Below, piece by piece: positions 15,375 through 60,860 of a stretch of 64,000 nucleotides of DNA (its first letter is position 1; every line of letters begins with the position of its first letter). Under the pieces are notes generated by a model that did no database searches, had not been told where the DNA came from, and saw nothing but the letters and a program-made list of their open reading frames with translations. Location: the NCBI GenBank assembly GCA_963782055.1, contig CAWAIF010000003.1, forward strand, positions 5,184,001-5,248,000, in the 5' to 3' direction. The translations under genes were made by a program, and so were the position numbers. Source of the DNA: an uncultured delta proteobacterium. GTDB lineage: Bacteria; Myxococcota_A; Polyangia; Polyangiales; Polyangiaceae.

Positions 15375-15790
15375 GCGAGGTCGACGGCGTCATCGACCAG
15401 ACGATGCCGTCCGGATCGACCCCTTCGTAGCTGCCGCCAGGCTCGGGCGCCGCCGTCGCGAGATCGACGACGCCGTTCGCGTCGGCGTCGAACGTCGCGC
15501 TCGCGCCCCAACCCGTGAAGCGCGCGGTGACGGTGATCTGGGCGACCGGATCGAGACCGGTGACGCGGACGTCGAGCGCGTTCGCCCAGAGCATGCGCGT
15601 CACCGCGACGGGCGTCGTGCCCGAGACGTCGAAGAAGGTGACGGCCGGCGACGGCGGCGTCCCGGCGTCGGGGCTGCCCGCGTCCGGCGCGTCGGGCGCG
15701 GACCCGCCGCACGCGAGCGCGGCGAGCGCGACGAGCGCGACGAGCGCGACGACCGGCGGAAAACGAGGCGGAGGCGGAAGCGCATCCTCG
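15375..15790 (-). pseudogene. Acyl-CoA thioesterase/BAAT N-terminal-domain lipoprotein, 3'-truncated at the repeat
   Basis: LDVRVTGLDP..ASATFDADANGVVDLATAAPEPGGSYEGVDPDGIVWSM runs directly into the repeat; no hydrolase domain follows. Confidence 0.7.
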
Positions 15791-16162
15791 CGCTGCAAAC
15801 AAGTTTCGTGCCGCCAGCGATGCCTGGCGCTTCGCGCGGCCACGCCTCGGACCGACAGTTTGCTAACGGATCGCACGTCACCGGCGAGGCGACGCTCTCG
15901 CACTGCGCGGTGATCGAGTAGGAGTCAGGAGGGCGTCGTTCGCGGTGCGCTCGTGATAGGTGGGCGCGACCGCGCGCAGGACGTCCGTCACGTCGGCGCG
16001 CGTCGCCAGGAGCCGCCGAAGCGCGAGCCTCCGCACACGGTCGTCCGCGCGCTGGTACCAGGTGACGAAGCTCTTTTCGACGATACGACGAACCACGTTC
16101 TTCACGCGCGAAAGCTGGCACGCCCGCGCGGATCGCGGACGTTACATCGCGTTACGCGGCCG

Positions 16163-17779
16163 TCAGAGCCCGGTGACCTTGCCGTCGCGCGCGATGCGGA
16201 AGGCCTTGACGCCCGCGTTGCTGTTGATGGTCTCCACAAAGAGCACGGCCGCGTCTCGACGCGCCACCAGCTCGAAGTCGTCTTGGATGACGCTCGACAT
16301 GAACGGCTCGCCGCCGCTCGTGGTGTCGTCGTAGATCGGGCGGTCTTCCGTCTTGTCGATGTCGCCCGGCTTCGCGACCACGTACCTCACGCCGCGACGG
16401 CTCGACCGCCACACGACGACGACGGCGTCGCCGAGGCCGACCGCTCGCACGTCCGAAGGCGCGCGCGGTCGCGCCGGCTCGGCGAGACGCGAGAATGCCT
16501 TGCGCAGATCGACCGTGTCGACCGGAGCGCACCCGCGGGCCGTGCATCGCGCGACGTGAAGCGTGAGCCCGTCCGCCGATGCGTCGACCAAGCTCGTGAA
16601 GGTCACCGCATCCACGCCGCACGACGCGGCGCTGTGCCTTTCGGCGCTGCCGATCGATCGCGGAATCGTGAACGTGTGAACGGGCGAGTGCTCGTCGTCA
16701 TGAAAGAACACCACGTAGCCCGGTCCGTAGATCGTCAGCGCGTCACGCACGAAGCAGCCGGCGAAATACGACGGCTTCGGGACGACGCCGATGTCTTCGA
16801 TCCCCGACGCCGTCGTGCCGACGAAGCGCCTGGCGAACAGATGCCGGGTGCCGTCCTTGGCGTCTTCGAGCCAAACCGCGCGGTCGCCGAGGAGGGTCAC
16901 GTCGGCGTTGGCCTCGGTGGTCCACTTGGCGTCGACGAGCGGCCCGTTCCCGCGGGACGCCGCATACGAGAACGTGGAGTCGCTGCCGGGGTTGCTCGAT
17001 TGTCGCGAGAGCACGAGCACGCTGCCGTCGCTCTCGCCAAACGCGGTGCACGCGCGACCCGTGCAGAACGGACGGGCGTCGTCCGCGCGGTGGACGGAGT
17101 CGCCGGACGAGTGCCAATCTTGTTGCCCCGTCGGCGCGACGAGAAGCGGCGCTCCGTCGGCGCTGCCGGCGAGGACCGACTTCGGGACGAGCGCACCCGG
17201 ACGGCACGCGATCTTCCCGATGGGCGCGCGCGACTCGCACAACGTGGTGCCGCCGAGGATGAAGTGGAGGTCCGCGCCCGGCACGGGATCGAAGCTCGCG
17301 CCGATCAAGCTCGCACGAAGAGCGAGCGGTGTCGTGCGCTCGTCCGCGACGTCCGCATAGGGAGGCGCGGCCGGTACGTCGTCAGGAGGCGGGCGCGTGC
17401 TCGGGCGCACGCCGAAATACGCGTCGAACGCGTAGGGCGAGCTCTCCACCGTGTCGACGTCGATGACGGGCGACGGTGCCTGCAGGTCGATGCCTTCGAG
17501 CGCCTCGTCGACCTCCTCGTAGTCGCGAACGTACTTCTCGCATCGCGCAGGCCAGCCCTTGGGCGGATGGCCGAGCATGATGCGATGAAGCCGAGCCGAT
17601 GCTTCCTCCTTCGGTAGAAGCGGCGCGCCGAACAGGCATTTGTGCACCGACGCCAGCGATGCAGCGGCGCGGCGAACCCGGTAAACCCGCGTGGCGTAGG
17701 TGACGGCGAAATAGGCCGCGACGCACCCCGCGGCGAGCCCGCCGAGCTTGACCCATCTTCGGCCGTTCACGGTGGGCAC
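16163..17779 (-). CDS. Hypothetical membrane-anchored protein (538 aa)
   Basis: Long ORF with N-terminal TM segment; start abuts left end of repeat copy 4. Confidence 0.65.
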   Translation of the reverse strand: MPTVNGRRWVKLGGLAAGCVAAYFAVTYATRVYRVRRAAASLASVHKCLFGAPLLPKEEASARLHRIMLGHPPKGWPARCEKYVRDYEEVDEALEGIDLQAPSPVIDVDTVESSPYAFDAYFGVRPSTRPPPDDVPAAPPYADVADERTTPLALRASLIGASFDPVPGADLHFILGGTTLCESRAPIGKIACRPGALVPKSVLAGSADGAPLLVAPTGQQDWHSSGDSVHRADDARPFCTGRACTAFGESDGSVLVLSRQSSNPGSDSTFSYAASRGNGPLVDAKWTTEANADVTLLGDRAVWLEDAKDGTRHLFARRFVGTTASGIEDIGVVPKPSYFAGCFVRDALTIYGPGYVVFFHDDEHSPVHTFTIPRSIGSAERHSAASCGVDAVTFTSLVDASADGLTLHVARCTARGCAPVDTVDLRKAFSRLAEPARPRAPSDVRAVGLGDAVVVVWRSSRRGVRYVVAKPGDIDKTEDRPIYDDTTSGGEPFMSSVIQDDFELVARRDAAVLFVETINSNAGVKAFRIARDGKVTGL

Positions 17780-17828
17780 GTAGGAAATCCTAGCGCGGTC
17801 GGGCGCGAAAGTTTACGAAATCCATCTT
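17779..17828 (+). repeat. 99-bp unit left half (copy 4, split by module 1)
   Basis: CGTAGGAAATCCTAGCGCGGTCGGGCGCGAAAGTTTACGAAATCCATCTT. Confidence 0.92.
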
Positions 17829-18006
17829 GGACGAAGCCGCTGCGCGGCAGCGTGGCTCCGCATCAAGCTCGCTCGCGACCCGGGAGCCCCGCGAGCCGTG
17901 TGCGCGCTGACGAGCCCGCCTCGTAGCCCTCGCGTGCCGTGATGCGGGCGATCCTGCGGCGCGCGCCGCCCGCTCGTGGGCGCGCGCGGAGCCGAAGGAG
18001 GCCGCG

Positions 18007-18852
18007 ATGGGTGCGAAGCGAAGACTGCGGGACACGATGAGCGAGGACCTCGCGCTGCGAGGGATGAGCGCCAACACGATCGCCACGTACGTGGGGTGCG
18101 TGCGGCGGTTCGCGCAGTACCACGGGCGGTCGCCGTGCGCGCTGGGGGCGGCGGAGATCCGGACGTTCCTTTTGCACCTGGTGGCGGAGCGCAGGCTGGC
18201 GGCGCTGACGGTCAACGTGCACGCGGCCGCGCTGAGGTTTCTCTACGAGGTGACGCTGGAGCGGCCGGAGGCGACGCTGGGGATGGCGCGCATGCGGGTG
18301 CCGATGCACGTGCCGGTGGTGCTGACGAGCGCGGAGGTGGCGCGGCTGCTCGCGTCGCTCACGAGCCACAAGCACCGGGCCCTGGTGATGCTCGCCTACG
18401 GGGCGGGGCTGCGCGTGAGCGAGGTGTGCAAGCTCCGGGTGGACGACATCGATCCGAAGCGGATGCTCCTGCACGTGCGGCACACCAAGCGCGGGCGTGA
18501 GCGCTACGTGATGCTCAGCGCGAGGCTGCTGGCGACGCTGCGCGCGTACTGGAAGGCGTCACGACCCGCAGGACCGCAACTGTTTCCGGGGCGCGTGCCC
18601 GGGACGCTCCTCACGCGCGCGGCCGTCCACCGGGCGATCCTCAAGGCGGCGCGGCGCGCGGGCATCACCCGGCGCGTGTCGCCGCACACGCTGCGCCACA
18701 GCTTCGCCACGCACCTGCTCGACGCAGGGACCGACCTTCGCACGTTGCAGGTCTTGCTCGGGCACGCGTCGCTCAGGAGCACGATGGCCTACCTGCACGT
18801 GAGCACCGCCCGCGTGCAGTCGATTCAGAGCCCCCTCGACGCGCTGCCCTGA
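18007..18852 (+). CDS. Tyrosine recombinase/integrase with N-terminal SAM-like domain
   Basis: GLRVSE (R), TKRG (K), HTLRHSFATHLL (HxxR), LLGH, MAY (Y). Confidence 0.95.
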   Translation: MGAKRRLRDTMSEDLALRGMSANTIATYVGCVRRFAQYHGRSPCALGAAEIRTFLLHLVAERRLAALTVNVHAAALRFLYEVTLERPEATLGMARMRVPMHVPVVLTSAEVARLLASLTSHKHRALVMLAYGAGLRVSEVCKLRVDDIDPKRMLLHVRHTKRGRERYVMLSARLLATLRAYWKASRPAGPQLFPGRVPGTLLTRAAVHRAILKAARRAGITRRVSPHTLRHSFATHLLDAGTDLRTLQVLLGHASLRSTMAYLHVSTARVQSIQSPLDALP

Positions 18853-18858
18853 GCCCCG

Positions 18859-19815
18859 ATGCACCCGTCGTGTGCGCCCGCGCGCACGCGCGCGGCGCCC
18901 ATCGAGCTCGCGGACGTGGTGCGCGCCCACGGCGAGGCCTTCGCCGGCGGCCGCGTGCTGCGTCCCGAGGAGCGGTCGGCGCTGCGGGCGATCGAGCGAT
19001 GCCGGACCGCCGCGCTGGGCGGACATCTGGACGTGTGCACCGCGTGCGGGCTCGAGCGACCGTCGTACAACTCGTGCCGCAACCGGCACTGTCCCAAGTG
19101 CCAGTCGCTCGCGCAGGCGCGGTGGGTCGCCACGCGGCTCGAGCGCATTCTGCCCGTGCACTACTTCCACGTCGTCTTCACGCTCCCCGCCGAGCTGCGC
19201 GCCGTCGCGCGGCGCTCGCGCGCGCGGGTCTTCGACATGCTCTTCGCGAGCGCGGCCGACACGCTGGCCACCCTCGCGCGGGATCCGAAGTGGCTCGGCG
19301 CCGAGCTCGGCGTCACGATGGTCCTGCACACCTGGACGCGCGCGCTGCTCTTCCACCCCCACGTGCACGCCATCGTCACCGGCGGCGGACTCACCGGCGA
19401 CGCCGCGCGCTGGGTGCGCGCGCGCCGTCGCTTCCTCTTCCCCGTGCGCGTGATGGGCGTCTCGATGGGCGAGCGCGGCGTCACCTTCCGCACCAGAGAC
19501 GGCAAGTCGGTCACCGTCCCGGCCGAGGAGCTGCTCGCGCGCTTCGTCCAGCACGTGCTGCCGCGCGGCTTCGTCAAGATCCGCCACTACGGCCTGCACT
19601 CCGCCAGCCACGCCACCACGCGCCTCGAGACCGCACGCCGCAGACTGGGTCCGCACGCGCCCGCTGCGCGACCGGAGCGCCGTGCCGTCGCCGCCGACCT
19701 GCTGCTGCGAATCGCGGGCATCGACCTGCGCCGCTGCCCCGCTTGCCACACGCCTGCCCTCGTGCGCACCGCGCTGCCCGAGCCCCGAGCTCGCGCCCCG
19801 CCGAGGGCCGCATGA
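18859..19815 (+). pseudogene. IS91-family transposase with in-frame 201-bp deletion removing the catalytic YxxxY
   Basis: Zn-binding CTAC..SCRNRHCPKCQ and HUH HPHVH retained; YLGRY seen in 55420-56577 absent. Confidence 0.9.
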
Positions 19816-20142
19816 TCTCCCCGCGTCGTGCTCCACTGCGCTCGCTCCACGAGTGCGGCCCAGGCCCCTGTCCATCCGCGCCACCAAAAACCGCCCTCCG
19901 AGCACGCACGGCTGCCCGCTGCGCGCTCCGGGACGCCCGCGTCGAGCGCCGTCCCGCCGCCCGCTCGGCACCTCGCGCACCCGCACACGTGACCCACACG
20001 CCGCCAACTTCCCCATAGGGCTCCGAGGCCACCGCCTCGCCGCTGCCGCGCACCGGCTTCGTCCAACCGTCGATTTCGCGACCGCGCACCCGCGCCACGC
20101 GACCGCCGCCGCGACCCGGCGCGCTCACGCAATCGACTCTTA

Positions 20143-20190
20143 CTTATGCGAAATGGCCGTCCGGTCTCACTGGAAGGACGGACCAGGGTG
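20143..20190 (+). repeat. 99-bp unit right half (copy 4)
   Basis: CTTATGCGAAATGGCCGTCCGGTCTCACTGGAAGGACGGACCAGGGTG. Confidence 0.92.
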
Positions 20191-28565: not shown

Positions 28566-28650
28566 TCAGTGCGCGCCGACCAGCCGCACCAGCGTGCCCA
28601 TCACGTGCCGGAACCGCCCGCGCAGCACCTCGTCCAGCTCCGGCATGTAG
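28566..28650 (-). pseudogene. Orphan 3' gene tail (four-helix-bundle-like), cut at the repeat
   Basis: YMPELDEVLRGRFRHVMGTLVRLVGAH* begins at the repeat boundary. Confidence 0.4.
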
Positions 28651-28701
28651 CGCATAGGAACTGCTAGCGCGGTCGGGCGCGAAAGTTTACGAAATCCATC
28701 T
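28651..28701 (+). repeat. 99-bp unit left half (copy 5)
   Basis: CGCATAGGAACTGCTAGCGCGG..GAAATCCATCT followed directly by the intron. Confidence 0.92.
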
Positions 28702-28789
28702 ATCGGCATAGGGGCCCCGGGTTTCCCCGGGGACCCCTGCCACACCACCGGACAGGCGGGTCCGCATCCGGCGGTTCGGAGAGTTGAGG

Positions 28790-29249
28790 TCACGTGTCGA
28801 GCCGGGGAAGCCCCAGCTCGTCGAAGAGCTTGTTCGGCAGAGCCACGCTGAGGACGCGCATTCCCGAGGTTCGCCACCAGCGCGTCGTATTTGCTGCCGC
28901 GCGGCGAGCGTCGACGGGAGGGATCCCCCGTCGGCGCAGTTCTCGGAAGACGGTGACTCCTCGCACCCACTGCTTCAACTGCAGTGCGCGGAGTCGGTGC
29001 CGGATCCAAGAGTCCAGCTCGCGAAAGAGCGTGCGGAGCTCGACAAGCTGGAAGTAGTTCTTCCAGCCTGGCAAGTACCCTCGCAGATCTCGGCAGACCT
29101 GGGCCAGGCTCCGACCGCGCATGCGGCTCGTCATGTGCCGCACGCGGTCCTTCATCGTGTCGAGGGCCTTGCGCGCGATCGTGCAGCGGACCTCGTTCTT
29201 CGACGACAACCAAAAGGTGTAGCCGAGGAACTTCCGGTCTTGCACGGGT
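28790..29249 (-). pseudogene. ltrA: Intron RT/maturase, C-terminal part (RT7 and domain X)
   Basis: PVQDRKFLGYTF..GWKNYF..LDSWIRHRLR; in frame with the N-part after IS removal; no En domain. Confidence 0.9.
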
Positions 29250-29259
29250 GCCACCGCGC

Positions 29260-30704
29260 CATGCCCGATCTCTTAAGCACCGATCGCCCCAAGTTTGAGG
29301 GCGATTCGTTTCCTGGAGCGTGAAGGTTGTCGTTCGCGTGCCAGAGCGACGAGTGCCGCGCCCACGGTGGTCACGACGGCAGTCCACGCGGCGGTGCTCA
29401 GGGAGACGAGGGCGTCGACCAGGTCCCGCGCGTAGGCGCGCACGACGTGCAACGTCGCCAGGGGGCGCAGTTGCTCGAGAGGGACGTCGCGCGCGAGTGC
29501 AGCCTGGATCCTGACCGAGCGCACGAGCGCGTGGGCGAGCATCGCGCCGTAGGTGAGCGCCTTGATCGCGTGGGGATCGGCGGTGAAGGAGCGGCCGAGG
29601 TCGGCGGTCTGCTTCAGCTCGCGAAAGAGCAGCTCGATCAGCCAGCGGAGTCGGTAGGTCTGGATGATCTGCCGTGGCGAGAGCACGCTGCGCGGCACGG
29701 TGGTCAGGTACCAGCGGATGACGGTCGACTTGTGCGCGAGTCCCACGAGCCGCAATGCGACGGTGTCCTTGCCCTTGCCCCACGTCACGTCGAGGTCGAA
29801 GATCGTCCCGCGCTTGCGCGACACGCTCTGCAGGTAGTAGCCAAGCGACCAGTTGTGGAGCGGGGTGTGGCCGTTCTCCGAGATGTGCGCGGTCACGCGT
29901 ACCTTCGCCGTGGTCTTGAGGCGCATCAGCACGTGCGCGCCGGCAGCCTTCGCCTGGGTGAACAGAGCGCGCTCGAAAAAGCCGAGGTCGAAGAGGTAGA
30001 GCACCCCGCGCGTGAAGCTCGGGACCAGCTTCCGCCACAGCGGCGTCTCCGACGCGGTCTCCGCGTCGGAGACGCCGTGCTCGAGCAGGCCGGTCTTGAT
30101 GCTGTAGCCCATCACCCACTTGGTGCCGGCCTTGCCCTTGGTGCATCCCGGCAGCAGCTCGCGCCCGCGCGGTGGCACGCGCTGCCCCGTACCGTCGTAG
30201 ACCCGCACGTCCTCGAAGCGGGCGAGCGGCCCGCTCAGCTCCAGGCCCGCCGCCTTCGTCACCGACGCCACGAGGTGCTCGAGCGCCGCGCGGAAGAACG
30301 CCGCCGCCGACTCCTGCTTGAACCGCTTCTGGAACGGGCACGGGCGCATGAAGCCGAAGCGCCTCACGAAGATCGCCCGCAGCGACTCGAACGACAGCGT
30401 CTGGCCCGCGAGGAACCCCTCGACGACCGTGAGCACCAGGCGGAACGCGGTGGCGCGCCGCTGCCGCGGGTTGTAGCCGGTGCGGCCCCGAAGCTCGTCG
30501 ATGACCGCCGGCGTGAAGGTCCGCTGCAGCTGCTCCTCCACCGCGCTCGCCTCTTCGCTCGGGTCTGGACGGCTGCTCGTGGCTCGGGTAGCTCTCGTCG
30601 TCATCGGGCGTCCTCTCCTTGTTGGTGTCGCAACCGAACAACGAGAAAGGCGCCCGATTTATTTCCATCATTCCGCCACGTTATGTCCAAAGGATCTGGC
30701 CATG
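29260..30704 (-). mobile_element. IS4-family insertion sequence, 1445 bp
   Basis: 10-bp TSD GCCACCGCGC (29250-29259, 30705-30714); imperfect IRs CATGCCCGATCTCTT / CATGGCCAGATCCTT. Confidence 0.9.
29273..30604 (-). CDS. IS4-family DDE transposase
   Basis: VYDGT, LFDLGFF, YRLRWLIELLFRELKQ (YREK motif). Confidence 0.92.
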   Translation of the reverse strand: MTTRATRATSSRPDPSEEASAVEEQLQRTFTPAVIDELRGRTGYNPRQRRATAFRLVLTVVEGFLAGQTLSFESLRAIFVRRFGFMRPCPFQKRFKQESAAAFFRAALEHLVASVTKAAGLELSGPLARFEDVRVYDGTGQRVPPRGRELLPGCTKGKAGTKWVMGYSIKTGLLEHGVSDAETASETPLWRKLVPSFTRGVLYLFDLGFFERALFTQAKAAGAHVLMRLKTTAKVRVTAHISENGHTPLHNWSLGYYLQSVSRKRGTIFDLDVTWGKGKDTVALRLVGLAHKSTVIRWYLTTVPRSVLSPRQIIQTYRLRWLIELLFRELKQTADLGRSFTADPHAIKALTYGAMLAHALVRSVRIQAALARDVPLEQLRPLATLHVVRAYARDLVDALVSLSTAAWTAVVTTVGAALVALARERQPSRSRKRIALKLGAIGA

Positions 30705-31618
30705 GCCACCGCGCTCTTCGACTCGTTGATCTGGAGATGGAGCTTCGCGTAGAGACGCCGCAGCGCCTGCATGACCCGCTCGCCCGCTCGCCGTGACCGC
30801 ACGTAAACGTTGCTGTCATCGGCGTAGCGCACGAAGGCGTGTCCGCGCTTCTCCAGCTCCTTGTCGACTTCGTCGAGGAGCACGTTCGCAAGCATTGGCG
30901 AGAGAGGACCGCCCTGGGGCGTTCCCTCGTCGCGATCCATCACGACGCCGTTCGCCATGATGCCGGCGTTCAGGTAGCGACGGATGAGTCCCAGCACGCG
31001 CCGATCCTCGATTCGTTTGGCCAGTCTCCCCATGAGCACGTCGTGGTTGACGCGGTCGAAGAAAGCTTCGAGATCCACGTCGACCACCCATCGTCTTCCT
31101 TGCTGCACATACCGCTTCGCCTCGCGCACGGCGTCGTGCGCGCTGCGCCGCGGCCGGAAGCCGTGGCTGTGCTCCGAGAAGGTCGGATCGAATCGAGGCT
31201 GCAGGACCTGCAAGAGGGCCTGCTGGATGAGTCGGTCGAGCACCGTCGGGATGCCGAGCTGTCGCTCGCCGCCGCCGCTCTTCGGAATCACGTGCCGTCG
31301 CACCGGCTGCGGCTGGTACGTCCCCGCGAGCAGCTGCTCGCGGAGGGACGGCCAGTGCACGCGAAGGTGGTCCGGTAGCTCCTCCACCGTCATCCCGTCG
31401 ATGCCGGGACTGCCCTTGTTCCGCTTCACTCGCTTCAGCGCGGCCTGAAGGTTCTTGCGCGTGAGCGCCGCCTCCATCAGCCCGCTCGTTCCTGAGCGCT
31501 CGGTTCCATGGGTCGCCGAATCCGCTTCCACGCGTCGGTCGTCGCTCGGGGCTTCACCATCCGCGGCGGTCGGCGTCTCGCTCTTGGACTTCTGTGGCTG
31601 CGCGTTCTCGAGATCCAT
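30705..31618 (-). pseudogene. ltrA: Intron RT/maturase, N-terminal part (RT0-RT6)
   Basis: GSPGIDG, LGIPTVLDRLIQQA, GTPQGGPLSPMLAN, RYADD. Confidence 0.92.
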
Positions 31619-32226
31619 GGGCGTTTCGCCCTCCTCTCCGTTTGGCCCTTCGCAGCGATAGAGACTTCCGGGGTTCGGGGGGGGTCCCTGCCCGGCTCCT
31701 TCGCCGCTACTACGGCCTCTGCTGACTTCTCGCTCCGTCCGACGTTGTCGCCGGCCGTCGCCCTTTCAGGCGCGAGGCGAGATCTCCCCAGGTAAGAGCA
31801 TCAACCTTCACCGCACGACCGCCGGATATACGCCGCCGAGCTTCGGTCACGAGAGCTTCGCGGGTTCCAGTCCGCTCGCCCTGCTCGGCCACGCCTCCGA
31901 TCCGATTTCTGTACGTCGGCCCGCGGCTTCGCTCCCCACTTCCTCCAGACGGTCCCTCACGGTTCCGCCCTTGTGGTTCGCTTCTGTCATTGTGACCAAT
32001 TTCAGGAAGGACTTTCACCTCCGGGTTGATGCCCATGCTGGGCGCACTGGACGAAGCCGCTGCGCGGCAGCGTGGCTCCGCATCAAGCTCGCTCGCGACC
32101 CGGGAGCCCCGCGAGCCGTGTGCGCGCTGACGAGCCCGCCTCGTAGCCCTCGCGTGCCGTGATGCGGGCGATCCTGCGGCGCGCGCCGCCCGCTCGTGGG
32201 CGCGCGCGGAGCCGAAGGAGGCCGCG

Positions 32227-33072
32227 ATGGGTGCGAAGCGAAGACTGCGGGACACGATGAGCGAGGACCTCGCGCTGCGAGGGATGAGCGCCAACACGAT
32301 CGCCACGTACGTGGGGTGCGTGCGGCGGTTCGCGCAGTACCACGGGCGGTCGCCGTGCGCGCTGGGGGCGGCGGAGATCCGGACGTTCCTCTTGCACCTG
32401 GTGGCGGAGCGCAGGCTGGCGGCGCTGACGGTCAACGTGCACGCGGCCGCGCTGAGGTTTCTCTACGAGGTGACGCTGGAGCGGCCGGAGGCGACGCTGG
32501 GGATGGCGCGCATGCGGGTGCCGATGCACGTGCCGGTGGTGCTGACGAGCGCGGAGGTGGCGCGGCTGCTCGCGTCGCTCACGAGCCACAAGCACCGGGC
32601 CCTGGTGATGCTCGCCTACGGGGCGGGGCTGCGCGTGAGCGAGGTGTGCAAGCTCCGGGTGGACGACATCGATCCGAAGCGGATGCTCCTGCACGTGCGG
32701 CACACCAAGCGCGGGCGTGAGCGCTACGTGATGCTCAGCGCGAGGCTGCTGGCGACGCTGCGCGCGTACTGGAAGGCGTCACGACCCGCAGGACCGCAGC
32801 TGTTTCCGGGGCGCGTGCCCGGGACGCTCCTCACGCGCGCGGCCGTCCACCGGGCGATCCTCAAGGCGGCGCGGCGCGCGGGCATCACCCGGCGCGTGTC
32901 GCCGCACACGCTGCGCCACAGCTTCGCCACGCACCTGCTCGACGCAGGGACCGACCTTCGCACGTTGCAGGTCTTGCTCGGGCACGCGTCGCTCAGGAGC
33001 ACGATGGCCTACCTGCACGTGAGCACCGCCCGCGTGCAGTCGATTCAGAGCCCCCTCGACGCGCTGCCCTGA
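32227..33072 (+). CDS. Tyrosine recombinase/integrase
   Basis: Same 281-aa protein as 18007-18852. Confidence 0.95.
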   Translation: MGAKRRLRDTMSEDLALRGMSANTIATYVGCVRRFAQYHGRSPCALGAAEIRTFLLHLVAERRLAALTVNVHAAALRFLYEVTLERPEATLGMARMRVPMHVPVVLTSAEVARLLASLTSHKHRALVMLAYGAGLRVSEVCKLRVDDIDPKRMLLHVRHTKRGRERYVMLSARLLATLRAYWKASRPAGPQLFPGRVPGTLLTRAAVHRAILKAARRAGITRRVSPHTLRHSFATHLLDAGTDLRTLQVLLGHASLRSTMAYLHVSTARVQSIQSPLDALP

Positions 33073-33078
33073 GCCCCG

Positions 33079-34038
33079 ATGCACCCGTCGTGTGCGCCCG
33101 CGCGCACGCGCGCGGCGCCCATCGAGCTCGCGGACGTGGTGCGCGCCCACGGCGAGGCCTTCGCCGGCGGCCGCGTGCTGCGTCCCGAGGAGCGGTCGGC
33201 GCTGCGGGCGATCGAGCGATGCCGGACCGCCGCGCTGGGCGGACATCTGGACGTGTGCACCGCGTGCGGGCTCGAGCGACCGTCGTACAACTCGTGCCGC
33301 AACCGGCACTGTCCCAAGTGCCAGTCGCTCGCGCAGGCGCGGTGGGTCGCCACGCGGCTCGAGCGCATTCTGCCCGTGCACTACTTCCACGTCGTCTTCA
33401 CGCTCCCCGCCGAGCTGCGCGCCGTCGCGCGGCGCTCGCGCGCGCGGGTCTTCGACATGCTCTTCGCGAGCGCGGCCGACACGCTGGCCACCCTCGCGCG
33501 GGATCCGAAGTGGCTCGGCGCCGAGCTCGGCGTCACGATGGTCCTGCACACCTGGACGCGCGCGCTGCTCTTCCACCCCCACGTGCACGCCATCGTCACC
33601 GGCGGCGGACTCACCGGCGACGCCGCGCGCTGGGTGCGCGCGCGCCGTCGCTTCCTCTTCCCCGTGCGCGTGATGGGCGTCTCGATGGGCGAGCGCGGCG
33701 TCACCTTCCGCACCAGAGACGGCAAGTCGGTCACCGTCCCGGCCGAGGAGCTGCTCGCGCGCTTCGTCCAGCACGTGCTGCCGCGCGGCTTCGTCAAGAT
33801 CCGCCACTACGGCCTGCACTCCGCCAGCCACGCCACCACGCGCCTCGAGACCGCACGCCGCAGACTGGGTCCGCACGCGGCGCCCGCTGCGCGACCGGTG
33901 CGCCGTGCCGTCGCCGCCGACCTGCTGCTGCGAATCGCGGGCATCGACCTGCGCCGCTGCCCCGCTTGCCACACGCCTGCCCTCGTGCGCACCGCGCTGC
34001 CGGAGCCCCGAGCTCGCGACCCGCCGGGGGCCGCATGA
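33079..34038 (+). pseudogene. IS91-family transposase with the same 201-bp deletion
   Basis: VRVMG|VSMGERG junction, YLGRY missing. Confidence 0.9.
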
Positions 34039-42166: not shown

Positions 42167-42169
42167 GCG

Positions 42170-43621
42170 TCATGGATCGGTGTTGTCCGTGGCGCGCCGG
42201 CACCCGATGGTGAGCCCTTGATCACACGCCTTCGCATACAGCCGTTGAGCAGCTACCGCATCCGGTCGCGTTCCGACGCCGACCGCCGTGAGCCGCGCCA
42301 AAGTCAAGCACGCAGTCGACTCGCCCTCATTGCAGGCCAGATCGTCAAATGATACCGCGATGCTGGCGTCTCGTGAAGTTCCGATGCCAGCTTCGTAGAC
42401 GCGGCCCACGTTGGCGCAAGCTTGCCCGAGTCCCTCCTGGCACGCCTTGATGTAGAGCTCTACGGCGCGTGCAGCGAACCCGCATCCTGGTGTCCTCTCG
42501 TAGACTTGCGCCAAGTCGTTGCAGCCTCCCGCTCCGTCGCGGCCGCCATTCAAGCAGGCTCGTTTGTAGAGGCGAAGCGCCGTTGCCTCATCCCGCTCGA
42601 CGCCGAACCCAACTTGGTAGAGCTGCGCAAGGTCCTCGCATCCTACCGGATCGTCATGAGCGCACGCGTGTCGATATAGCTCCGCGGCGCGGACTGGATT
42701 GAAGCTCACCGTAATGCCATGCTGGTAGGCAACGCCCAGGTTGACGCAGGCGCTCTCACCGCCCCCATGACCACACGCTCGCCGGTATAACTTGACTGCG
42801 CGCGCCGTGTCGACGGGTACACCGCGGCCGCTGTCATACAGCCACCCTAGATTGCCACATCCAACCATGTCACCCCCCGCGCATCCTCGCCAATAGCTCG
42901 TCGCCGCGCGAGCGTAATCCTGGATACCACCGCGCCCGCGTTCGAAGAGGGCGCCCAGGTTGCTGCAGGCGCGAGCCAGACCCCTGCCGCAAAGCGAATC
43001 GTAGAGGAGTGCCGCTTGCGGCACATCGCGACTGTCATCGTCGTAGAGCCACGCGAGTTGGAGGCAGGCCTCGACGTCGCCGGCGTTGCATGTAGCCTGC
43101 TGGATGGTGATGGCGTGATCAACGTCTCGCGGGACACCAAGCCCCCCCGCATAATCAATTCCCAAACGCCTACATCCAACGATCTGTCCCCCGTAGCAAG
43201 CACGTTGATTGAGGCGCGCGGCGCGTTTGAGATCGGTGCTCACACCAATGCCGTTCGCGCAGAGCCACCCCAGGTCCAGACAGCCTTCGGCGTCGCCAAG
43301 CTGGCACCCCCGCTCGTCGAGTTCGGCCGCCTGCTTATCGTCTCGACTGACGACAATACCTTGTAGATAAAGCGATCCCGCCGCCGTACAACTCCCTGCG
43401 ACGCCGCGGGAGCATTCCAACTGGAGAATGGTGAGGGAAGGGGCGCGCGGGCCGCGCGCCGCGGTGCTAGCAGTTCCCCTGCAGCATCCAGACGCATCGG
43501 GGTTCTCGCCGGACCGACAGAGCGAGCTACATGTCACCGCCTGTCCCTGAGCGGCTGAAGCACCGAGCAACGGAAGGAGAAATGCCAGGGGCCAAAGGGG
43601 AGGGGAACAGCGCATTCTCAC
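42170..43621 (-). CDS. Sel1-like repeat (Hcp-type, Cys-containing) protein
   Basis: Repeated C.NLG.LY..G.GV..D...A..LY..AC. Confidence 0.88.
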   Translation of the reverse strand: MRMRCSPPLWPLAFLLPLLGASAAQGQAVTCSSLCRSGENPDASGCCRGTASTAARGPRAPSLTILQLECSRGVAGSCTAAGSLYLQGIVVSRDDKQAAELDERGCQLGDAEGCLDLGWLCANGIGVSTDLKRAARLNQRACYGGQIVGCRRLGIDYAGGLGVPRDVDHAITIQQATCNAGDVEACLQLAWLYDDDSRDVPQAALLYDSLCGRGLARACSNLGALFERGRGGIQDYARAATSYWRGCAGGDMVGCGNLGWLYDSGRGVPVDTARAVKLYRRACGHGGGESACVNLGVAYQHGITVSFNPVRAAELYRHACAHDDPVGCEDLAQLYQVGFGVERDEATALRLYKRACLNGGRDGAGGCNDLAQVYERTPGCGFAARAVELYIKACQEGLGQACANVGRVYEAGIGTSRDASIAVSFDDLACNEGESTACLTLARLTAVGVGTRPDAVAAQRLYAKACDQGLTIGCRRATDNTDP

Positions 43622-43861
43622 ATGATAGCTCAGGCGCGCTCACGGGCAAAGGGCGTCCGGTGGCCTCCGTAGGGCTCGTTAGGCTCCCAGTCGCGGTTGA
43701 CACCCGCTCCAGTCGGAGCCCACGGAAGGCTGCAGGCTCCGCCCGCACGCAGATGTCGGCAGATGTTCACTGCTGTCGCACCGGGCGGCCTCGCGAAGGG
43801 GGTGCGTGGTGGCGGGGCGGGCCACTCGAACGCTCGAACGCCTGAACTTCCGGCACGTTGG

Positions 43862-43960
43862 CGCATAGGAAATCCTAGCGCGGTCGGGCGCGAAAGTTTA
43901 CGGAATCCATCTTATGCGAAGTGGGGCCGTCCGGTGTCACTGGAAGGACGGACCAGGGTG
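43862..43960 (+). repeat. 99-bp unit, intact empty copy (copy 7)
   Basis: Left and right halves joined through a single CTT (43911-43913). Confidence 0.95.
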
Positions 43961-54057: not shown

Positions 54058-54336
54058 GTCGATGGGGATCCCAGGGTACCCGAACTTGGGGTGTCGGGAG
54101 CTTCAAGGGACGACCTCTGGCCCAAGCCGCCGACCCCACGATCTGCGCTTCCGGCATGGTCCGCCGGGGCAGTTGGCCTGACCCCCGATGGTACCCCCAA
54201 CGCAGGCCGTTTTGATCGAAGCGTCCCCTCCCGTGTATTCACCCCATGGGAAGCGCACGAAACACCATCCAGGCGTCCCAAGCCGATGAAACGGGAGGTA
54301 GCGACCCGGCCCGTACCTGCCTCGTCTGCGGCAGGG

Positions 54337-54388
54337 CGCATAGGAAATCCTAGCGCGGTCGGGCGCGAAAGTTTACGGAATCCATCTT
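54337..54388 (+). repeat. 99-bp unit left half (copy 8)
   Basis: CGCATAGGAAATCCTAGCG..CCATCTT. Confidence 0.92.
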
Positions 54389-54566
54389 GGACGAAGCCGC
54401 TGCGCGGCAGCGTGGCTCCGCATCAAGCTCGCTCGCGACCCGGGAGCCCCGCGAGCCGTGTGCGCGCTGACGAGCCCGCCTCGTAGCCCTCGCGTGCCGT
54501 GATGCGGGCGATCCTGCGGCGCGCGCCGCCCGCTCGTGGGCGCGCGCGGAGCCGAAGGAGGCCGCG

Positions 54567-55412
54567 ATGGGTGCGAAGCGAAGACTGCGGGACACGATGA
54601 GCGAGGACCTCGCGCTGCGAGGGATGAGCGCCAACACGATCGCCACGTACGTGGGGTGCGTGCGGCGGTTCGCGCAGTACCACGGGCGGTCGCCGTGCGC
54701 GCTGGGGGCGGCGGAGATCCGGACGTTCCTTTTGCACCTGGTGGCGGAGCGCAGGCTGGCGGCGCTGACGGTCAACGTGCACGCGGCCGCGCTGAGGTTT
54801 CTCTACGAGGTGACGCTGGAGCGGCCGGAGGCGACGCTGGGGATGGCGCGCATGCGGGTGCCGATGCACGTGCCGGTGGTGCTGACGAGCGCGGAGGTGG
54901 CGCGGCTGCTCGCGTCGCTCACGAGCCACAAGCACCGGGCCCTGGTGATGCTCGCCTACGGGGCGGGGCTGCGCGTGAGCGAGGTGTGCAAGCTCCGGGT
55001 GGACGACATCGATCCGAAGCGGATGCTCCTGCACGTGCGGCACACCAAGCGCGGGCGTGAGCGCTACGTGATGCTCAGCGCGAGGCTGCTGGCGACGCTG
55101 CGCGCGTACTGGAAGGCGTCACGACCCGCAGGACCGCAGCTGTTTCCGGGGCGCGTGCCCGGGACGCTCCTCACGCGCGCGGCCGTCCACCGGGCGATCC
55201 TCAAGGCGGCGCGGCGCGCGGGCATCACCCGGCGCGTGTCGCCGCACACGCTGCGCCACAGCTTCGCCACGCACCTGCTCGACGCAGGGACCGACCTTCG
55301 CACGTTGCAGGTCTTGCTCGGGCACGCGTCGCTCAGGAGCACGATGGCCTACCTGCACGTGAGCACCGCCCGCGTGCAGTCGATTCAGAGCCCCCTCGAC
55401 GCGCTGCCCTGA
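54567..55412 (+). CDS. Tyrosine recombinase/integrase
   Basis: Same 281-aa protein. Confidence 0.95.
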   Translation: MGAKRRLRDTMSEDLALRGMSANTIATYVGCVRRFAQYHGRSPCALGAAEIRTFLLHLVAERRLAALTVNVHAAALRFLYEVTLERPEATLGMARMRVPMHVPVVLTSAEVARLLASLTSHKHRALVMLAYGAGLRVSEVCKLRVDDIDPKRMLLHVRHTKRGRERYVMLSARLLATLRAYWKASRPAGPQLFPGRVPGTLLTRAAVHRAILKAARRAGITRRVSPHTLRHSFATHLLDAGTDLRTLQVLLGHASLRSTMAYLHVSTARVQSIQSPLDALP

Positions 55413-55419
55413 GCCCCCG

Positions 55420-56577
55420 ATGCACCCGTCGTGTGCGCCCGCGCGCACGTGCGCGGCGCCCATCGAGCTCGCGGACGTGGTGCGCGCCCACGGCGAGGCC
55501 TTCGCCGGCGGCCGCGTGCTGCGTCCCGAGGAGCGGTCGGCGCTGCGGGCAATCGAGCGATGCCGGACCGCCGCGCTGGGCGGACATCTGGACGTGTGCA
55601 CCGCGTGCGGGCTCGAGCGACCGTCGTACAACTCGTGCCGCAACCGGCACTGTCCCAAGTGCCAGTCGCTCGCGCAGGCGCGGTGGGTCGCCACGCGGCT
55701 CGAGCGCATTCTGCCCGTGCACTACTTCCACGTCGTCTTCACGCTCCCCGCCGAGCTGCGCGCCGTCGCGCGGCGCTCGCGCGCGAGGGTCTTCGACATG
55801 CTCTTCGCGAGCGCGGCCGACACGCTGGCCACCCTCGCGCGGGATCCGAAGTGGCTCGGCGCCGAGCTCGGCGTCACGATGGTCCTGCACACCTGGACGC
55901 GCGCGCTGCTCTTCCACCCCCACGTGCACGCCATCGTCACCGGCGGCGGACTCACCGGCGACGCCGCGCGCTGGGTGCGCGCGCGCCGTCGCTTCCTCTT
56001 CCCCGTGCGCGTGATGGGCGCCCTCTTTCGCGGCAAGATGCTCGCCGCTCTCGAGCGCGCCCACGCGCGCGGCCTCGTCGACCTGGGCGGCGTCGACCTG
56101 CTGGCGCTCCGACGCAAGGCCTGGGTCGTCTACGCCAAGCGACCCTTCGGCGGCCCCGCTCAGGTCATCCGCTACCTCGGTCGCTACACTCACCGCGTCG
56201 GCATCTCCAACCACCGCTTCGTCTCGATGGGCGAGCGCGGCGTCACCTTCCGCACCAGAGACGGCAAGTCGGTCACCGTCCCGGCCGAGGAGCTGCTCGC
56301 GCGCTTCGTCCAGCACGTGCTGCCGCGCGGCTTCGTCAAGATCCGCCACTACGGCCTGCACTCCGCCAGCCACGCCACCACGCGCCTCGAGACCGCACGC
56401 CGCAGACTGGATCCGCACGCGCCCGCTGCGCGACCGGAGCGCCGTGCCGTCGCCGCCGACCTGCTGCTGCGAATCGCGGGCATCGACCTGCGCCGCTGCC
56501 CCGCTTGCCACACGCCTGCCCTCGTGCGCACCGCGCTGCCCGAGCCCCGAGCTCGCGCCCCGCCGAGGGCCGCATGA
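55420..56577 (+). CDS. IS91-family (HUH/Y2) transposase, intact
   Basis: Zn-binding domain, HPHVH, RYLGRYTHRVGISNHR, QHVLPRGFVKIRHYG. Confidence 0.95.
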   Translation: MHPSCAPARTCAAPIELADVVRAHGEAFAGGRVLRPEERSALRAIERCRTAALGGHLDVCTACGLERPSYNSCRNRHCPKCQSLAQARWVATRLERILPVHYFHVVFTLPAELRAVARRSRARVFDMLFASAADTLATLARDPKWLGAELGVTMVLHTWTRALLFHPHVHAIVTGGGLTGDAARWVRARRRFLFPVRVMGALFRGKMLAALERAHARGLVDLGGVDLLALRRKAWVVYAKRPFGGPAQVIRYLGRYTHRVGISNHRFVSMGERGVTFRTRDGKSVTVPAEELLARFVQHVLPRGFVKIRHYGLHSASHATTRLETARRRLDPHAPAARPERRAVAADLLLRIAGIDLRRCPACHTPALVRTALPEPRARAPPRAA

Positions 56578-56904
56578 TCTCCCCGCGTCGTGCTCCACTG
56601 CGTTCGCTCCACGAGTGCGGCCCAGGCCCCGGTCCATCCGCGCCACCAAAAACCGCCCCCCGAGCACGCACGGCTGCCCGCTGCGCGCTCCGGGACGCCC
56701 GCGTCGAGCGCCGTCCCGCCGCCCGCTCCGCACCTCGCGCACCCGCACGCGTGACCCACACGCCGCCAACTTCCCCATAGGGCTCCGAGGCCACCGCCTC
56801 GCCGCTGCCGCGCACCGGCTTCGTCCAACCGTCGATTTCGCGACCGCGCACCCGCGCCACGCGACCGCCGCCGCGACCCGGCGCGCTCACGCAATCGACT
56901 CTTA

Positions 56905-56954
56905 CTTATGCGAAGTGGGGCCGTCCGGTGTCACTGGAAGGACGGACCAGGGTG
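56905..56954 (+). repeat. 99-bp unit right half (copy 8)
   Basis: CTTATGCGAAGTGGGG..CAGGGTG. Confidence 0.92.
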
Positions 56955-59658
56955 GCTGCCGGATGGAACCACGATTACGACGGTACCATCCGCTGATCCA
57001 CGCTACGGGTTCGGCTCGGCCTACGTGTCGTCGTCGACGGCATCGATCGGTGGTCACTCGGTGGCCACCAGTACCTCAATTCAGGAGCAGTTGAGCGATG
57101 CGTCGGACCCGCGCACCCTGACGGGACAGACGACGTACGGCACGGTCCTGATCAATTCGACGCCGTACACCGTGTCACAGGTGTTTAGCGCGGGCCCCCC
57201 TGCTACTGTCACCTACACCACGCCCGCAGGTCGTACCGCCACGCTGACGCTGGATGCCAACGACCGCGTGACGCAAGTCCAGGTGGGTGGCGACGTGCCC
57301 GGCCACCCTGGCTCGAGCCTAAATGCGACCAATATCGGCTACGACTCCGGCCGCCTCGGAACAATCAGCCAGGGTTCTACGCCAACGACACTAACCACGA
57401 CGTACCACTACAATTCGTCGACGGGCTTCCTCGATTCGGTCGATGGCCCCTTCGGATCCCACGTGTTCAACAATCCAACCCAGGACGCGCTCGGGCGGCC
57501 CTCGCATGTGTCGCTCCCGGGAGGAAACGTCGTGGGCCTGACGTATGACACCGCGGGCCACGTGAATTCGGTGACGGTGCCCCAGGGCTACGTCCATGGG
57601 TACGGGTTCAACGCCGACGACCTCCTGGGCTCGCACGCCCCACCGAGCGCCTCGCCCGGCGGGCCGACCAACTATGGCTACTCCCCGGAGCGCCTCCTGT
57701 CTTACGTCGAACCACCGGGCACGGTGGTCAGCTACGATCACGACGCTGACGGCCGCATCTCCAGCATCTCCTACCCGAGTCCGGTTGACGGGACGATGCG
57801 GCAGACCTCGTTCGGCTACTATGCCGACAACGACCCGCAGACTGGACACGCCAAGGGACACGTCTCCACGATCGACGACACCGACGTGAACCTGACCTAC
57901 AAGTACAACGGCCCTCTCCTGACCTCCGAGGAGTTCCAGGTCCCGAACTACGGCGCGACCTTCGACCACACCGTCCACTACGGCTACGGCGACCACCTCC
58001 CCCGCGTCACCTCGCGCGACATCGACGGTGCCGCCGGCTTCACCTTCACCTACGACGACCTGAACGGCGCCGCCAACAACGGAGGCGTCGGAGACGCCGA
58101 CGGCTACCTCTGGCGGATCACGGGCGGCGGACAGGACTACACCGTCACGCGCGCCGCAAACGGGATGATCGCCAGCCCGACGGTCGGGGCACTGAGCGAG
58201 GGCTACGAGTACGACCTGAACGGCGCGCTCACCAGGTACTGGATGAAGCACGGCCAGACCACGCTCTACGAGGCAGACTACACGCGCAACCACGCGGGCA
58301 GCGAGCGGGTCCAGAGCGAGACGGAGATCGTGAACGGCATCTCGTGCGCGATCGGCTACGACTACTACCCGGACAACCGCCTGCACACCGTCACCAACTC
58401 CTGCGGCGGCGGCGGGTCCTACAGCTACAACCCCGACGGCACGATGTCCGGGCCGACGCACGACGCGCAGGACCGGACCATCGACGACGGCCCCACCCAC
58501 TTCGCCTACGCGGCCGACGGATCGACCTACAGCCAGTCCGGATCGAACTACCTCGTCAACTACCGCTACGATCCCGCCGGCAACCTGCTGCACTTCGACC
58601 GCAACGACGGCGGCAACGCGCGCACCTACGACTACCGGGTCGACGGCCTGAACCGGCGGATCGCCCGGACGACGCAGGACCAGCGCGGATGGCTCTACGA
58701 CGGCGACCGCATCATCGGGGAGGTGGACGGCACGGGCCGCGTGGTCGCCCACTTCGCCTACTTCACCCACGCCAACGTCCCCGACCTGATGCTGCGCCTG
58801 GACTGGGACAACAACTGGATCCTCTACCGCATCGTGACCGACCAGCTCGGCACCGTGAAGGCGGTGATCCGCACCTCCGACGGCGCGGTGATGGAGCTGT
58901 ACTCCTACAGCGACGCCTGGGGTGCGATGAGCGCCGTCTACGACGGCAACCTCCAGTGGCTCAACGGGGGCTCCCCGACCTTCCAGCCGTTCGGGTTTGC
59001 AGGCGGGCTGGTGGACTACTATGCTGGTACCCTGCGCTACGGCGCGCGAGACTACAACCCCTGGCAGAGGAGGTGGCTGACGCAGGATCCGATCGGGCAG
59101 GCTGGCGGGCTGTACGTGTATGGGTACTGCCATGACGATCCGGTGAACTGCGCAGATCCCTCTGGGCGTTTCGGCGTGGGTGGCCTTTTGGATCTGTACA
59201 ACGCCACGGTCGGCTCGTTTCTTGGAAAGATCAATGCCGCGGAGGCAACGGCGGTCGGGCTCGCGTTCGGTGCGGCAGGCGTCGCCACCAATGTTGTTGA
59301 CGGAAAGGAGTACGGCGTTGACTACTCCGTGGACATAGGAAATAACGCAATCGAATTTAAGGGGCATCCGGTGGTTGGCGCATTTACGCCGGCCGTCACA
59401 CTCGGAAACGTAATCTGCTACGAGAATGCCTCGCCTGGCCCATACACGCAAGCTCACGAGAGACAGCACACCTATCAGGCTGAAACGCTCGGGGATCTCT
59501 ACTTGCCGGCGCAAGCCGACTCTCAGGTGCTAGGATTTGTTAGTAGTTTTTTTGATAGCAGCCACACGTACAGCGGCTTAAACGACAGAGTTCACGGGCC
59601 CGGAAATCTCTTGGAGACGGGGCCGTCGATGGTTGATCCGCAACCGTGGCCGTGGTGA
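56955..59658 (+). pseudogene. RHS/YD-repeat toxin, 5'-truncated at the repeat; C-terminal HExxH domain
   Basis: YD repeats; RYGARDYNP..WLTQDPIG..PVNCADPSG core end; HERQH in the lower-GC tip; ORF-track start lies inside the repeat. Confidence 0.85.
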
Positions 59659-59670: not shown

Positions 59671-60243
59671 ATGAGGTTGCTCGCCATGGGTGGTACCAAT
59701 TGGCAGTGGATACACTCCTCACTGGCAAGGGTGGTGGCGACTGTGATGGTGGCGGGTGTTGGTGTGCTCGCCCTTCAGCTCGTACTGGCCTTGGGTGTGA
59801 TGGCTGGACATGGCCACCGACACTCCTTCGTCACGACTCTGACCCCTCCAGCTGGGATGACTGTGAACGAACGCTGTGTGCGCACCGGCCTAGTTCGGGG
59901 CTTTGGCCGAAACCGAGTGGGTGAAAGTCATGCTGATGGTCGCACGACTTTTCATGTTCGGGTATATGGTCCACCGTCCAAAGATCGACGTAATGGTATC
60001 GTTTTCTACGCGGCCATCGCGCGACACGGAGGCGCAGCCAAAGATATCGTCGAACTCGAGGGCGAATGGTTTCAGCAAGAACCGATGAGCAAGTTTGACG
60101 CAATGGCGTCGACGGGCATGTCGCGAATTGTATCCGCTATCTCCGCTTCATGCGGCTCAGGCGCTGGACCTACTGCAGCCTGGAAGGCCGCTTGTAGGTA
60201 CGGAGACCTCACGGATGGCCCATGCCCGACCCCCAAGTTATGA
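59671..60243 (+). CDS. Putative immunity protein (membrane-anchored)
   Basis: Directly downstream of the RHS tip, lower GC, N-terminal TM. Confidence 0.55.
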   Translation: MRLLAMGGTNWQWIHSSLARVVATVMVAGVGVLALQLVLALGVMAGHGHRHSFVTTLTPPAGMTVNERCVRTGLVRGFGRNRVGESHADGRTTFHVRVYGPPSKDRRNGIVFYAAIARHGGAAKDIVELEGEWFQQEPMSKFDAMASTGMSRIVSAISASCGSGAGPTAAWKAACRYGDLTDGPCPTPKL

Positions 60244-60322
60244 CGGACGGACTGAAACGGGTCCACAGCGAGACGGAGATCGTGAGAAATAGCGCATGCG
60301 GCATGCTTGTTGAACAACGCTC

Positions 60323-60568
60323 TTGCCGGCGGCTCGCCACTGGACCGGGTCCTTGTCCCGGAGGTCTACCGTGACATTGGGTAACGTTCTCGGTCGGCTG
60401 CACGGGAGGAGCTCTTCTTGGTGTCGTCGGGCCTGTACATGCCTGATAGCGGTTGCGCTGACCGCGCCCGCCTGCGGCGTGCGGAGCAACCTGGACGCCT
60501 GCCCCACCTCCGAGACGGCCTGCGGCTTCACCTGCGCCGATCTCAGCGGTGACCCGGCCAACTGCGGG
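60323..60568 (+). pseudogene. Cys-rich lipoprotein, 3'-truncated at the repeat
   Basis: LIAVALTAPACG..CPTSETACGFTCADLSGDPANCG runs straight into CGCATAGG. Confidence 0.65.
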
Positions 60569-60667
60569 CGCATAGGAAATGCTAGCGCGGTCGGGCGCGA
60601 AAGTTTACGAAATCCATCTTATGCGAAGTGGGGCCGTCCGGTGTCACTGGAAGGACGGACCAGGGTG
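60569..60667 (+). repeat. 99-bp unit, intact empty copy (copy 9)
   Basis: Single CTT at 60618-60620. Confidence 0.95.
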
Positions 60668-60860
60668 GCGTACCGCCTGAGGATGCGGGCCGCAATCGAG
60701 CGAGTGAGTCGCATTTGCGGCGACGTCTTCTGGGGGCGGCCGCACGGGGCGTACGGCGGGAGGACGCCGGAGGAGGTGTATGCCGGGCGCGAGGCCGCCG
60801 CCGGGCATCTCGAACGCCTCGTGCTCTTCGACAACCGGCTTCGCTGGTGGTGCTTCTCGT
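60667..60860 (+). repeat. ~195-bp direct repeat A (integrase-core/transposase 3' remnant)
   Basis: Matches 63795-63988; encodes RPHGAYGGRTPEEVY. Confidence 0.8.

Follow-up and report, generated by a model that had tools for sequence, protein, structure and literature searches.

What sets the ends of the DNA segments lying between copies of a repeated 100-bp unit in an uncultured delta proteobacterium of the Polyangiaceae, and how did these segments come to lie there? The question is raised by a 64,000-nucleotide stretch (the window, G000:C3:5184001-5248000; GenBank GCA_963782055.1, contig CAWAIF010000003.1, called C3 here, from a three-contig assembly without N), in which several genes stop exactly where the unit begins. 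A sequence-only reading had ascribed these ends to a transposase, and this was borne out: the unit corresponds to the terminal 100 bp on the ori side of an IS91/ISCR-like element, and its junctions follow strict base rules. The window contains nine full or partial copies of the unit, all co-oriented, and the array to which they belong measures about 85 kb. Genome-wide we counted 40 ori-side ("A") and 37 inner ("B") unit ends, nearly all within a few clusters. The copies in the window, all on the plus strand, are:

2503..2550, remnant of a decayed unit, reduced to the inner (hairpin) half
12370..12430, decayed unit, ori half and dif-like site
15287..15374, unit lacking 12 bp across one dif-like arm
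17776..20190, unit split by a tyrosine-recombinase and IS91-transposase cassette (cassette 17827-20143)
28650..34415, unit split by a recombinase/IS91 cassette that a group II intron interrupts in turn
37391..39817, unit split by a recombinase/IS91 cassette (cassette 37442-39768)
43861..43960, intact 100-bp unit with ori end at 43861, central dif-like 28-mer, and inner hairpin end at 43960
54336..56954, unit split by a recombinase/IS91 cassette (cassette 54387-56905)
60568..60667, intact 100-bp unit

The unit is the end of an ISCR-like transposon

The unit is the exact last 100 bp of a transposon and begins about 40 bp past the transposase stop codon. The master element lies 17 kb right of the window (C3:5265163-5267127, about 1.97 kb) and encodes a 573-aa transposase with Y2_Tnp (E 1e-27) and Zn_Tnp_IS91 (2.6e-16) domains and an HUH motif that reads HFH at residue 180. 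Three arrays begin at such elements, on the ori side only and with the transposase gene directed toward the array; on the far side of each of the three masters, no unit end was found within about 33 kb. Two of the masters are 97.6% alike over 1,965 bp, and the third has an internal deletion. Their transposase is a second type in this genome, distinct from the IS91 transposase borne by the cassettes. The ISCR subgroup is set apart by a single catalytic tyrosine in place of YxxxY. The anchor transposase lacks YxxxY and the cassette transposase has one, so the predicted anchor protein shows the tyrosine arrangement of ISCR elements.

Three copies of the element share a common end about 140 bp after the transposase stop; terminal inverted repeats are absent, and relatives have similar ends. 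The motif at the outer end of the unit is presumably the oriIS motif, which makes the shared outer end a likely functional oriIS. Beyond the inner end, the masters alone carry a direct repeat of part of the ori sequence, and in relatives the same ori-like box precedes both ends. Upstream of the gene, where a terIS would be expected, two masters have a short block in common about 110 bp from the gene start, and beyond it their sequences part; the arrays lie on the opposite side. The ends do not follow a tetranucleotide target rule: a single purine is conserved outside the ori end, and a 1-base overlap is possible.

With four master-like and two tandem ends excluded from the counts, a purine lies just outside the ori end in 36 of 39 cases, and the cargo after the inner end starts with G or AG in 30 of 32, with GC in 17 of the 24 G starts. 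Where a unit-free copy of the cargo exists (at least 85% alike), that copy has G at the first inner-end position in 10 of 11 cases, and its base after the ori-side cut is mixed. Two of the junctions carry an A, which is also the next base in the master. Across four related genomes, the terminal TG of five copies is followed by G at the point where the master has A. Two head-to-tail units with zero cargo between them are found at C3:4433280-4433479. Divergence of unit ends from the master correlates with distance in array 1 (rho 0.82, n = 23 ends) and, less strongly, in array 2 (rho 0.40, n = 29 ends).

The same layout occurs in other genomes

Relatives of the transposase (E ≤ 1e-60) were found in 80 of 250 genomes of the order. 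A GTDB scan gave 46 related loci, and the named records include metagenome-assembled genomes of Myxococcales, Deltaproteobacteria, and Vicinamibacteria. A locus was considered assessable if it had the full transposase C terminus and at least 2.5 kb downstream; one 41-residue match was excluded. Ten of 14 assessable related loci, in nine genomes, have the same layout (5 of 8 from the scan and 5 of 6 fetched stretches, the latter being the assessable ones among 11, as the transposase C terminus did not align in the other 5). Related loci repeat their ori-terminal 88 to 180 bp downstream: G274 has five copies within 19 kb, G272 has three copies plus one elsewhere, and G273 has two. Used as a DNA query, the 100-bp unit itself gave short partial matches only, in 6 of 60 relatives.

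Two further observations concern these genomes. G164:C2:15013-143784 holds five identical, co-oriented ISCR-like transposase matches within 130 kb. In G248, G050, G192, and G145, related transposases lie 1 to 20 kb from a contig end, even in assemblies of few contigs, as if such arrays broke assemblies.

Genes are cut at unit ends, and the missing halves are not across the unit

The sequence-only reading had named six ends at which a gene is cut by the unit. All six are real, each within 1 base of a unit end, and the sixth lies in a decayed frame. The genes concerned, with a unit-free copy of the last one, are:

15376..15774, minus strand, acyl-CoA thioester hydrolase/BAAT gene, 5' part only, cut at unit (PF04775, profile 3-73/126)
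28566..28649, minus strand, orphan 3' tail of a four-helix-bundle-type gene, cut at ori end
34416..34541, plus strand, orphan Cys-rich 3' tail
56956..59658, plus strand, RHS/YD-repeat gene, 3' 900 codons only
60323..60567, plus strand, Cys-rich predicted lipoprotein, cut inside repeat, start codon uncertain
60668..60862, plus strand, 3' half of a repeated frame whose 5' half adjoins a unit ori end at C3:4437718
63600..63992, plus strand, unit-free copy of the 60668 frame, in which the cut maps to 63796

Homologues extend beyond each of the six cuts, and the genes are therefore not naturally this short. At 15375, the BAAT N-terminal Pfam match breaks off at profile position 73 of 126, and the cut maps to residue 149 of a same-genus homologue (72% identical, 483-aa frame), whose C-terminal part has no tblastn match in this genome. 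The tail at 28650 retains 27 codons, and three in-genome paralogues extend upstream across the cut (13 junction-reaching matches). A unit-free paralogue at C3:2247995 extends upstream of the cut at 34416. In seven of seven RHS homologues (2,185 to 2,878 aa), residue 1-2 of the 900-aa fragment starting at 56955 aligns to residue 1545-2074; none of 75 ori-side frames matches 40 homologues as a 5' part, and none of the other RHS paralogues in the genome adjoins a unit. The cut at 60568 falls inside a Cys repeat that runs on in two in-genome paralogues. Unit-free copies at window position 63796 and at C3:5250752 cross the cut at 60668, in a frame that looks like an already decayed transposase tail.

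The earlier observation that the lost part of each gene does not lie across the unit is true for all six cuts. Searching the whole genome for them beside other units gave one exact pair: in both intact copies, the ori-side flank of C3:4437718 and the inner flank of window position 60668 meet at one and the same G. For the BAAT, RHS, 28650, 34416, and 60568 genes, the search turned up no missing half beside a unit, and the exact pair is the only one among 25 ends traceable to a unit-free copy.

Artificial joins at a 100-bp repeat could in principle produce truncated genes, and no contig of sequencing runs X1 to X3 bridges a junction (X1 consists of short identical pieces at low depth from the same or a very close strain, and X2 and X3 are nearly empty). 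We regard assembly error as the least probable explanation of all: the base-exact ends obey sequence rules in a three-contig assembly that has no N, the missing halves are absent from the genome, and the same layout appears in independent assemblies. As a weak further point, one X1 contig stops exactly at 43860, where the genome has two continuations.

Mid-gene ends are common, not universal

As a general rule for the array, cutting within genes did not hold up, since only 6 of the 16 cargo ends in the window clearly show it. Another six lie 5 to 279 bp outside intact gene ends. A gene stop is 15 bp from 2550, about 15 bp from 12370, and about 54 bp from 20190; a gene start is 5 bp from 17776 (with an N-terminal register equal to that of a homologue) and about 107 bp from 37391; and hsdR starts 279 bp from 54336, where a short plus-strand frame also extends into the unit. 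The remaining four ends (15287, 39817, 43861, and 43960) are ambiguous.

For a wider count we used a frame-asymmetry score computed on 90-bp windows, excluding modules shorter than 700 bp or between like ends, and five ends (three master ends and two tandem ends) were left out of the coding counts. By this score 26 of 46 module ends are coding-like; the comparison values are 69% for cargo interiors, 86% for the chromosome, and 5% for shuffles (module ends versus cargo interior, p = 0.08). The corresponding figure for relatives is 14 of 31 ends, against 67% of random positions in the same loci. A host-trained dicodon model, which overlooks short tails and foreign genes and also fails on known cases such as the RHS fragment, called 18 of 72 ends coding versus 43% of random array positions. 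Pfam searches of 121 frames reaching 57 junctions gave matches at only 9 junctions and are too insensitive for counting cuts. Beyond the window, genes that are clearly cut include those for KdpD (profile 1-99 of 210), a predicted protein that we take to be an aldolase, and two transposases, the last three cut at codons 50/318, 84/471, and 57/461 of their unit-free copies. At L011:7946-8605, a gene with Tc-toxin-B-type middle domains (PF12255, PF12256) is cut at the unit at C3:5256607.

It had been proposed that capture ignores gene boundaries. About half of the ends are mid-gene, which agrees in part with that proposal, and they are slightly fewer than blind cutting of cargo predicts. The pattern fits blind cutting followed by loss of useless fragments.

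Cargo and its donors

The 27 modules range from 266 to 11,939 bp (median, 3,613) and often contain several genes, with no strand bias among cargo genes. We considered an outward promoter that would orient the cargo and rejected it, as there is neither strand bias nor a sigma-70 match. Eleven modules have no match of at least 90% elsewhere in the genome. Two are whole-module copies of unit-free DNA, one of 340 bp (100%) from contig C2 and one of 300 bp (98%) from C3:6.83 Mb. The 340-bp piece (C3:4411589-4411928, identical to C2:3479-3818) adjoins a master and is flanked by two oppositely oriented ori ends. A cargo of 4 kb is found three times:

39818..43860, no strand assigned, cargo shared by three modules whose ends are nested (by 150 bp on one side and 23 bp on the other)

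A 10-kb lower-GC module at window positions 44520-54057 carries an apparently intact type I restriction-modification operon, a Dam-like methylase, and a SocA-like antitoxin. A block of about 3 kb (RHS tail plus a decayed transposase-like frame) is present in three tandem copies (window 61655-64000 and L011:1-8600), and copies of it host several unit junctions in both big arrays.

These data bear on the earlier proposal that units insert and then recombine. A two-step route of this kind would have the 100-bp ori end land in genes as a mini-insertion sequence (mini-IS), after which rolling-circle read-through from a mini, or recombination of two direct-repeat minis at the dif-like site described below, would free circles of unit plus cargo that re-enter other units. 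The exact pair of halves, the nested ends, and the cargo common to arrays are all as such a route would have them, and mini-IS801 elements and ori-bordered circles have been demonstrated (PMC3189936, PMC6354349). The two whole modules derived from unit-free DNA and the polar arrays fit capture beside the transposase better than insertion followed by recombination. The route also has to reckon with a single pair among 25 ends, calls for a separate explanation of why the arrays are anchored at the master and polar, and leaves aside units that have a downstream copy yet no dif-like match (L053 and L105). As the main route we find it possible and rather unlikely, with the one pair in its favor; it probably acts as secondary shuffling in any case.

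The nested ends on the same cargo could also be read without any capture, if an island gathered ori-end minis and ori-bordered deletions then ate into neighboring genes and left fragments behind. IS801 is described as producing ori-bordered deletions (PMC6354349), and three of the four cassette transposases in the window are internally deleted. Such erosion explains neither the ori-side anchoring in nine other genomes and the age gradient nor the whole modules copied from unit-free chromosomal and C2 DNA, and we consider it improbable.

A dif mimic in the unit and its probable passengers

The middle of the unit is a 28-mer that is 23/28 identical to the single chromosomal dif site at C3:3558767, which lies at the GC-skew maximum and at a KOPS-like polarity switch. 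It fits the Xer/dif layout of 28 bp with two 11-bp arms. With the host dif as the query, a dif-like site in the same orientation was found in 9 of 42 related ori ends versus 0 of 840 shuffles, which speaks for the two-step route; a generic dif pattern as the query gave no match in relatives. The unit was also considered as an attC site on account of its inverted 8-mers, and this was rejected: folding z-scores are -0.5 to -1.5, and the core matches the host dif.

Four units in the window carry, at the edge of the dif spacer, a cassette of tyrosine recombinase and IS91 transposase (17827-20143, 28701-34366, 37442-39768, and 54387-56905). It has 26-bp inverted arms and its own ori-like motif after its transposase, and its recombinase is a 281-aa protein of IS91 type. 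In three of the four cassettes an in-frame deletion of about 200 bp removes the two-tyrosine motif, which only the 54387-56905 copy retains. One further insertion is found within a cassette:

28702-32047, minus strand, group II intron with RT gene and Rfam D1-D4 matches, inserted one base in from the start of the cassette

The intron carries a 1,455-bp DDE element with a transposase gene, and run X1 has a contig without the DDE element. At C3:4450560-4452183 (L014), a different insert of about 1.5 kb, whose inverted ends are of another kind, occupies the same dif-like core; ends related to these occur at other places in X1 contigs as well. Both cassette and intron probably ride along in the dif mimic and do not make the cargo ends.

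The recombinase in the cassette brings to mind an integron, in which it would set the cargo ends, and recombinases linked to IS91 elements have been described as an integron-like subgroup (10.1101/542381), to which this one belongs. The cassette has a mid-unit position, with some 50 bp separating it from the cargo on each side, and the cargo is without attC-like ends (no attC covariance model was run), shows no strand bias, and is often cut mid-gene. We found a 281-aa IS91-type recombinase and unoriented multi-gene cargo where an integron has an IntI with extra helices, an attI site, and attC-bounded, co-oriented, single-gene cassettes. An integron-like origin is thus very unlikely, and the earlier statement that the modules are unlike true integron cassettes stands on module size, gene number, and lack of strand bias.

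A proposed model of capture at the master ori

From sequence comparison, the account we incline to, somewhat more than to doubt it, is that the transposase duplicates its own ori end and joins arbitrary DNA beside its origin, with unit-to-unit shuffling later. The HUH transposase would nick the master ori, and host polymerase would copy 100 nt as far as the inner ori-like site. A single-stranded piece cut by the transposase from foreign, kin, or own DNA would be joined by its 5' G to the new copy, and the 3' purine of the same piece would be joined to the displaced ori end. HUH joining requires a 3'-OH and a 5'-phosphotyrosine end. Each round would thus add one unit and one cargo beside the transposase, so that gene borders would be irrelevant to the cut; later loss of useless fragments would account for the mild shortage of mid-gene ends. 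Afterwards units would recombine, through XerCD at the dif mimic, ori-to-ori circles, or homology, and this recombination is proposed to give the nested ends, the shared cargo, and the one separated pair of halves. Ori-end duplication at the master would be the simplest account of the anchoring, the polarity, the fixed unit length, the two junction rules, the unit-free donors, and the missing halves.

A bolder version draws an analogy to CRISPR adaptation: an HUH nickase would acquire DNA by duplicating a repeat and inserting kilobase pieces of any DNA next to the enzyme gene, XerCD would shuffle or excise them via the dif mimic present in every repeat, and the system would be widespread in Myxococcota-like and other uncultured bacteria. 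We put this version forward tentatively, as more doubtful than not.

Several points weigh against capture at the master ori. We infer the joining step from sequence comparison, and a single purine that was carried along or duplicated when the unit inserted could also account for the junction bases. The G274 subfamily uses other junction bases, and inner ends are variable in some relatives (L122 and L095). Polarity is weak in array 2 (rho 0.40, n = 29 ends), which mixes unit orientations (29 versus 6 ends), and the short array 3 has none (rho -0.42, n = 7). Unit ends at C3 1.40, 2.27, 5.98, and 6.17-6.33 Mb are far from any full master, and 4 of the 14 assessable related loci have no downstream copy. 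The exact pair at C3:4437718 and 60668 is a prediction of insertion followed by separation. Finally, known IS91-type capture is on the ter side, not the ori side (PMC3189936, PMC13181058).

Relationship to known systems

IS801 forms right-end minis of 229, 360, and 679 nt from the full element, and partial gene fragments are mobilized without target duplication (PMC3189936); it also forms ori-bordered deletion circles (PMC6354349). The arrays resemble it, as described there, in their fixed-length ori-end pieces, partial-gene capture, and apparent lack of target duplication. The IS801 minis disperse, with captured DNA at the ter side, whereas here ori-end copies form polar arrays beyond the ori end, and IS801 has a tetranucleotide target, in contrast to the 1- to 2-base rule and the dif mimic found here. 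For IS91, single-stranded DNA circles, tetranucleotide targets without target duplication, and one-ended transposition past terIS are described (PMC13181058, PMC9330008). With ISCR elements such as ISCR1 and ISCR2/ISVsa3 (PMC9330008), the anchor element shares an HUH transposase with a Zn domain, an ori downstream of the gene, absence of terminal inverted repeats, and a link to gene capture; going by that account, it would differ in capturing on the ori side, between short ori-end repeats, with many unrelated modules per element. The IS91/ISCR family has been termed poorly characterized (PMC13181058).

Like integrons, the arrays have an enzyme gene at one end of a polar array and cargo between repeated sites; they differ in the putative HUH enzyme, in cargo of 0.27 to 12 kb in either orientation and often cut mid-gene, and in having no attC cassettes. 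In pdif modules and integrative mobile elements exploiting Xer recombination (IMEX), dif-like 28-mers lie between accessory DNA, and modules are bounded by inversely oriented dif pairs, with their ends at the dif core. The arrays share the dif-like 28-mers between accessory DNA and the integration of another element in the site, but their units are direct repeats inside a transposon end, and the cargo ends about 50 bp from the dif core, at the unit ends. Helitrons capture gene fragments by rolling-circle transposition and have a hairpin near the 3' end. The present elements differ in being bacterial, in having no helicase gene, and in having cargo outside the element, between end copies.

Neither polar ori-end arrays nor a dif site in IS91/ISCR ends was found in the titles and abstract openings searched, which cover the literature incompletely. 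Mini-IS801 ends and partial-gene capture are known; the polar, dif-bearing ori-end array is apparently new, as a variant of IS91/ISCR capture.

Mid-gene cuts alone would be expected of any IS91-type end, and their worth here is as evidence on mechanism. These natural arrays supply base-exact junctions by the dozen, a 100-bp substrate of defined extent, copies graded by age, and an enzyme that looks intact, which together make the capture step directly testable. ISCR elements are linked to the spread of resistance genes; the array cargo here includes restriction-modification, RHS, and secreted-protein genes. If capture at the master ori is true, it would be a second, gene-blind route to integron-like arrays, and soil bacteria would gain an integron-like collection built regardless of gene borders.

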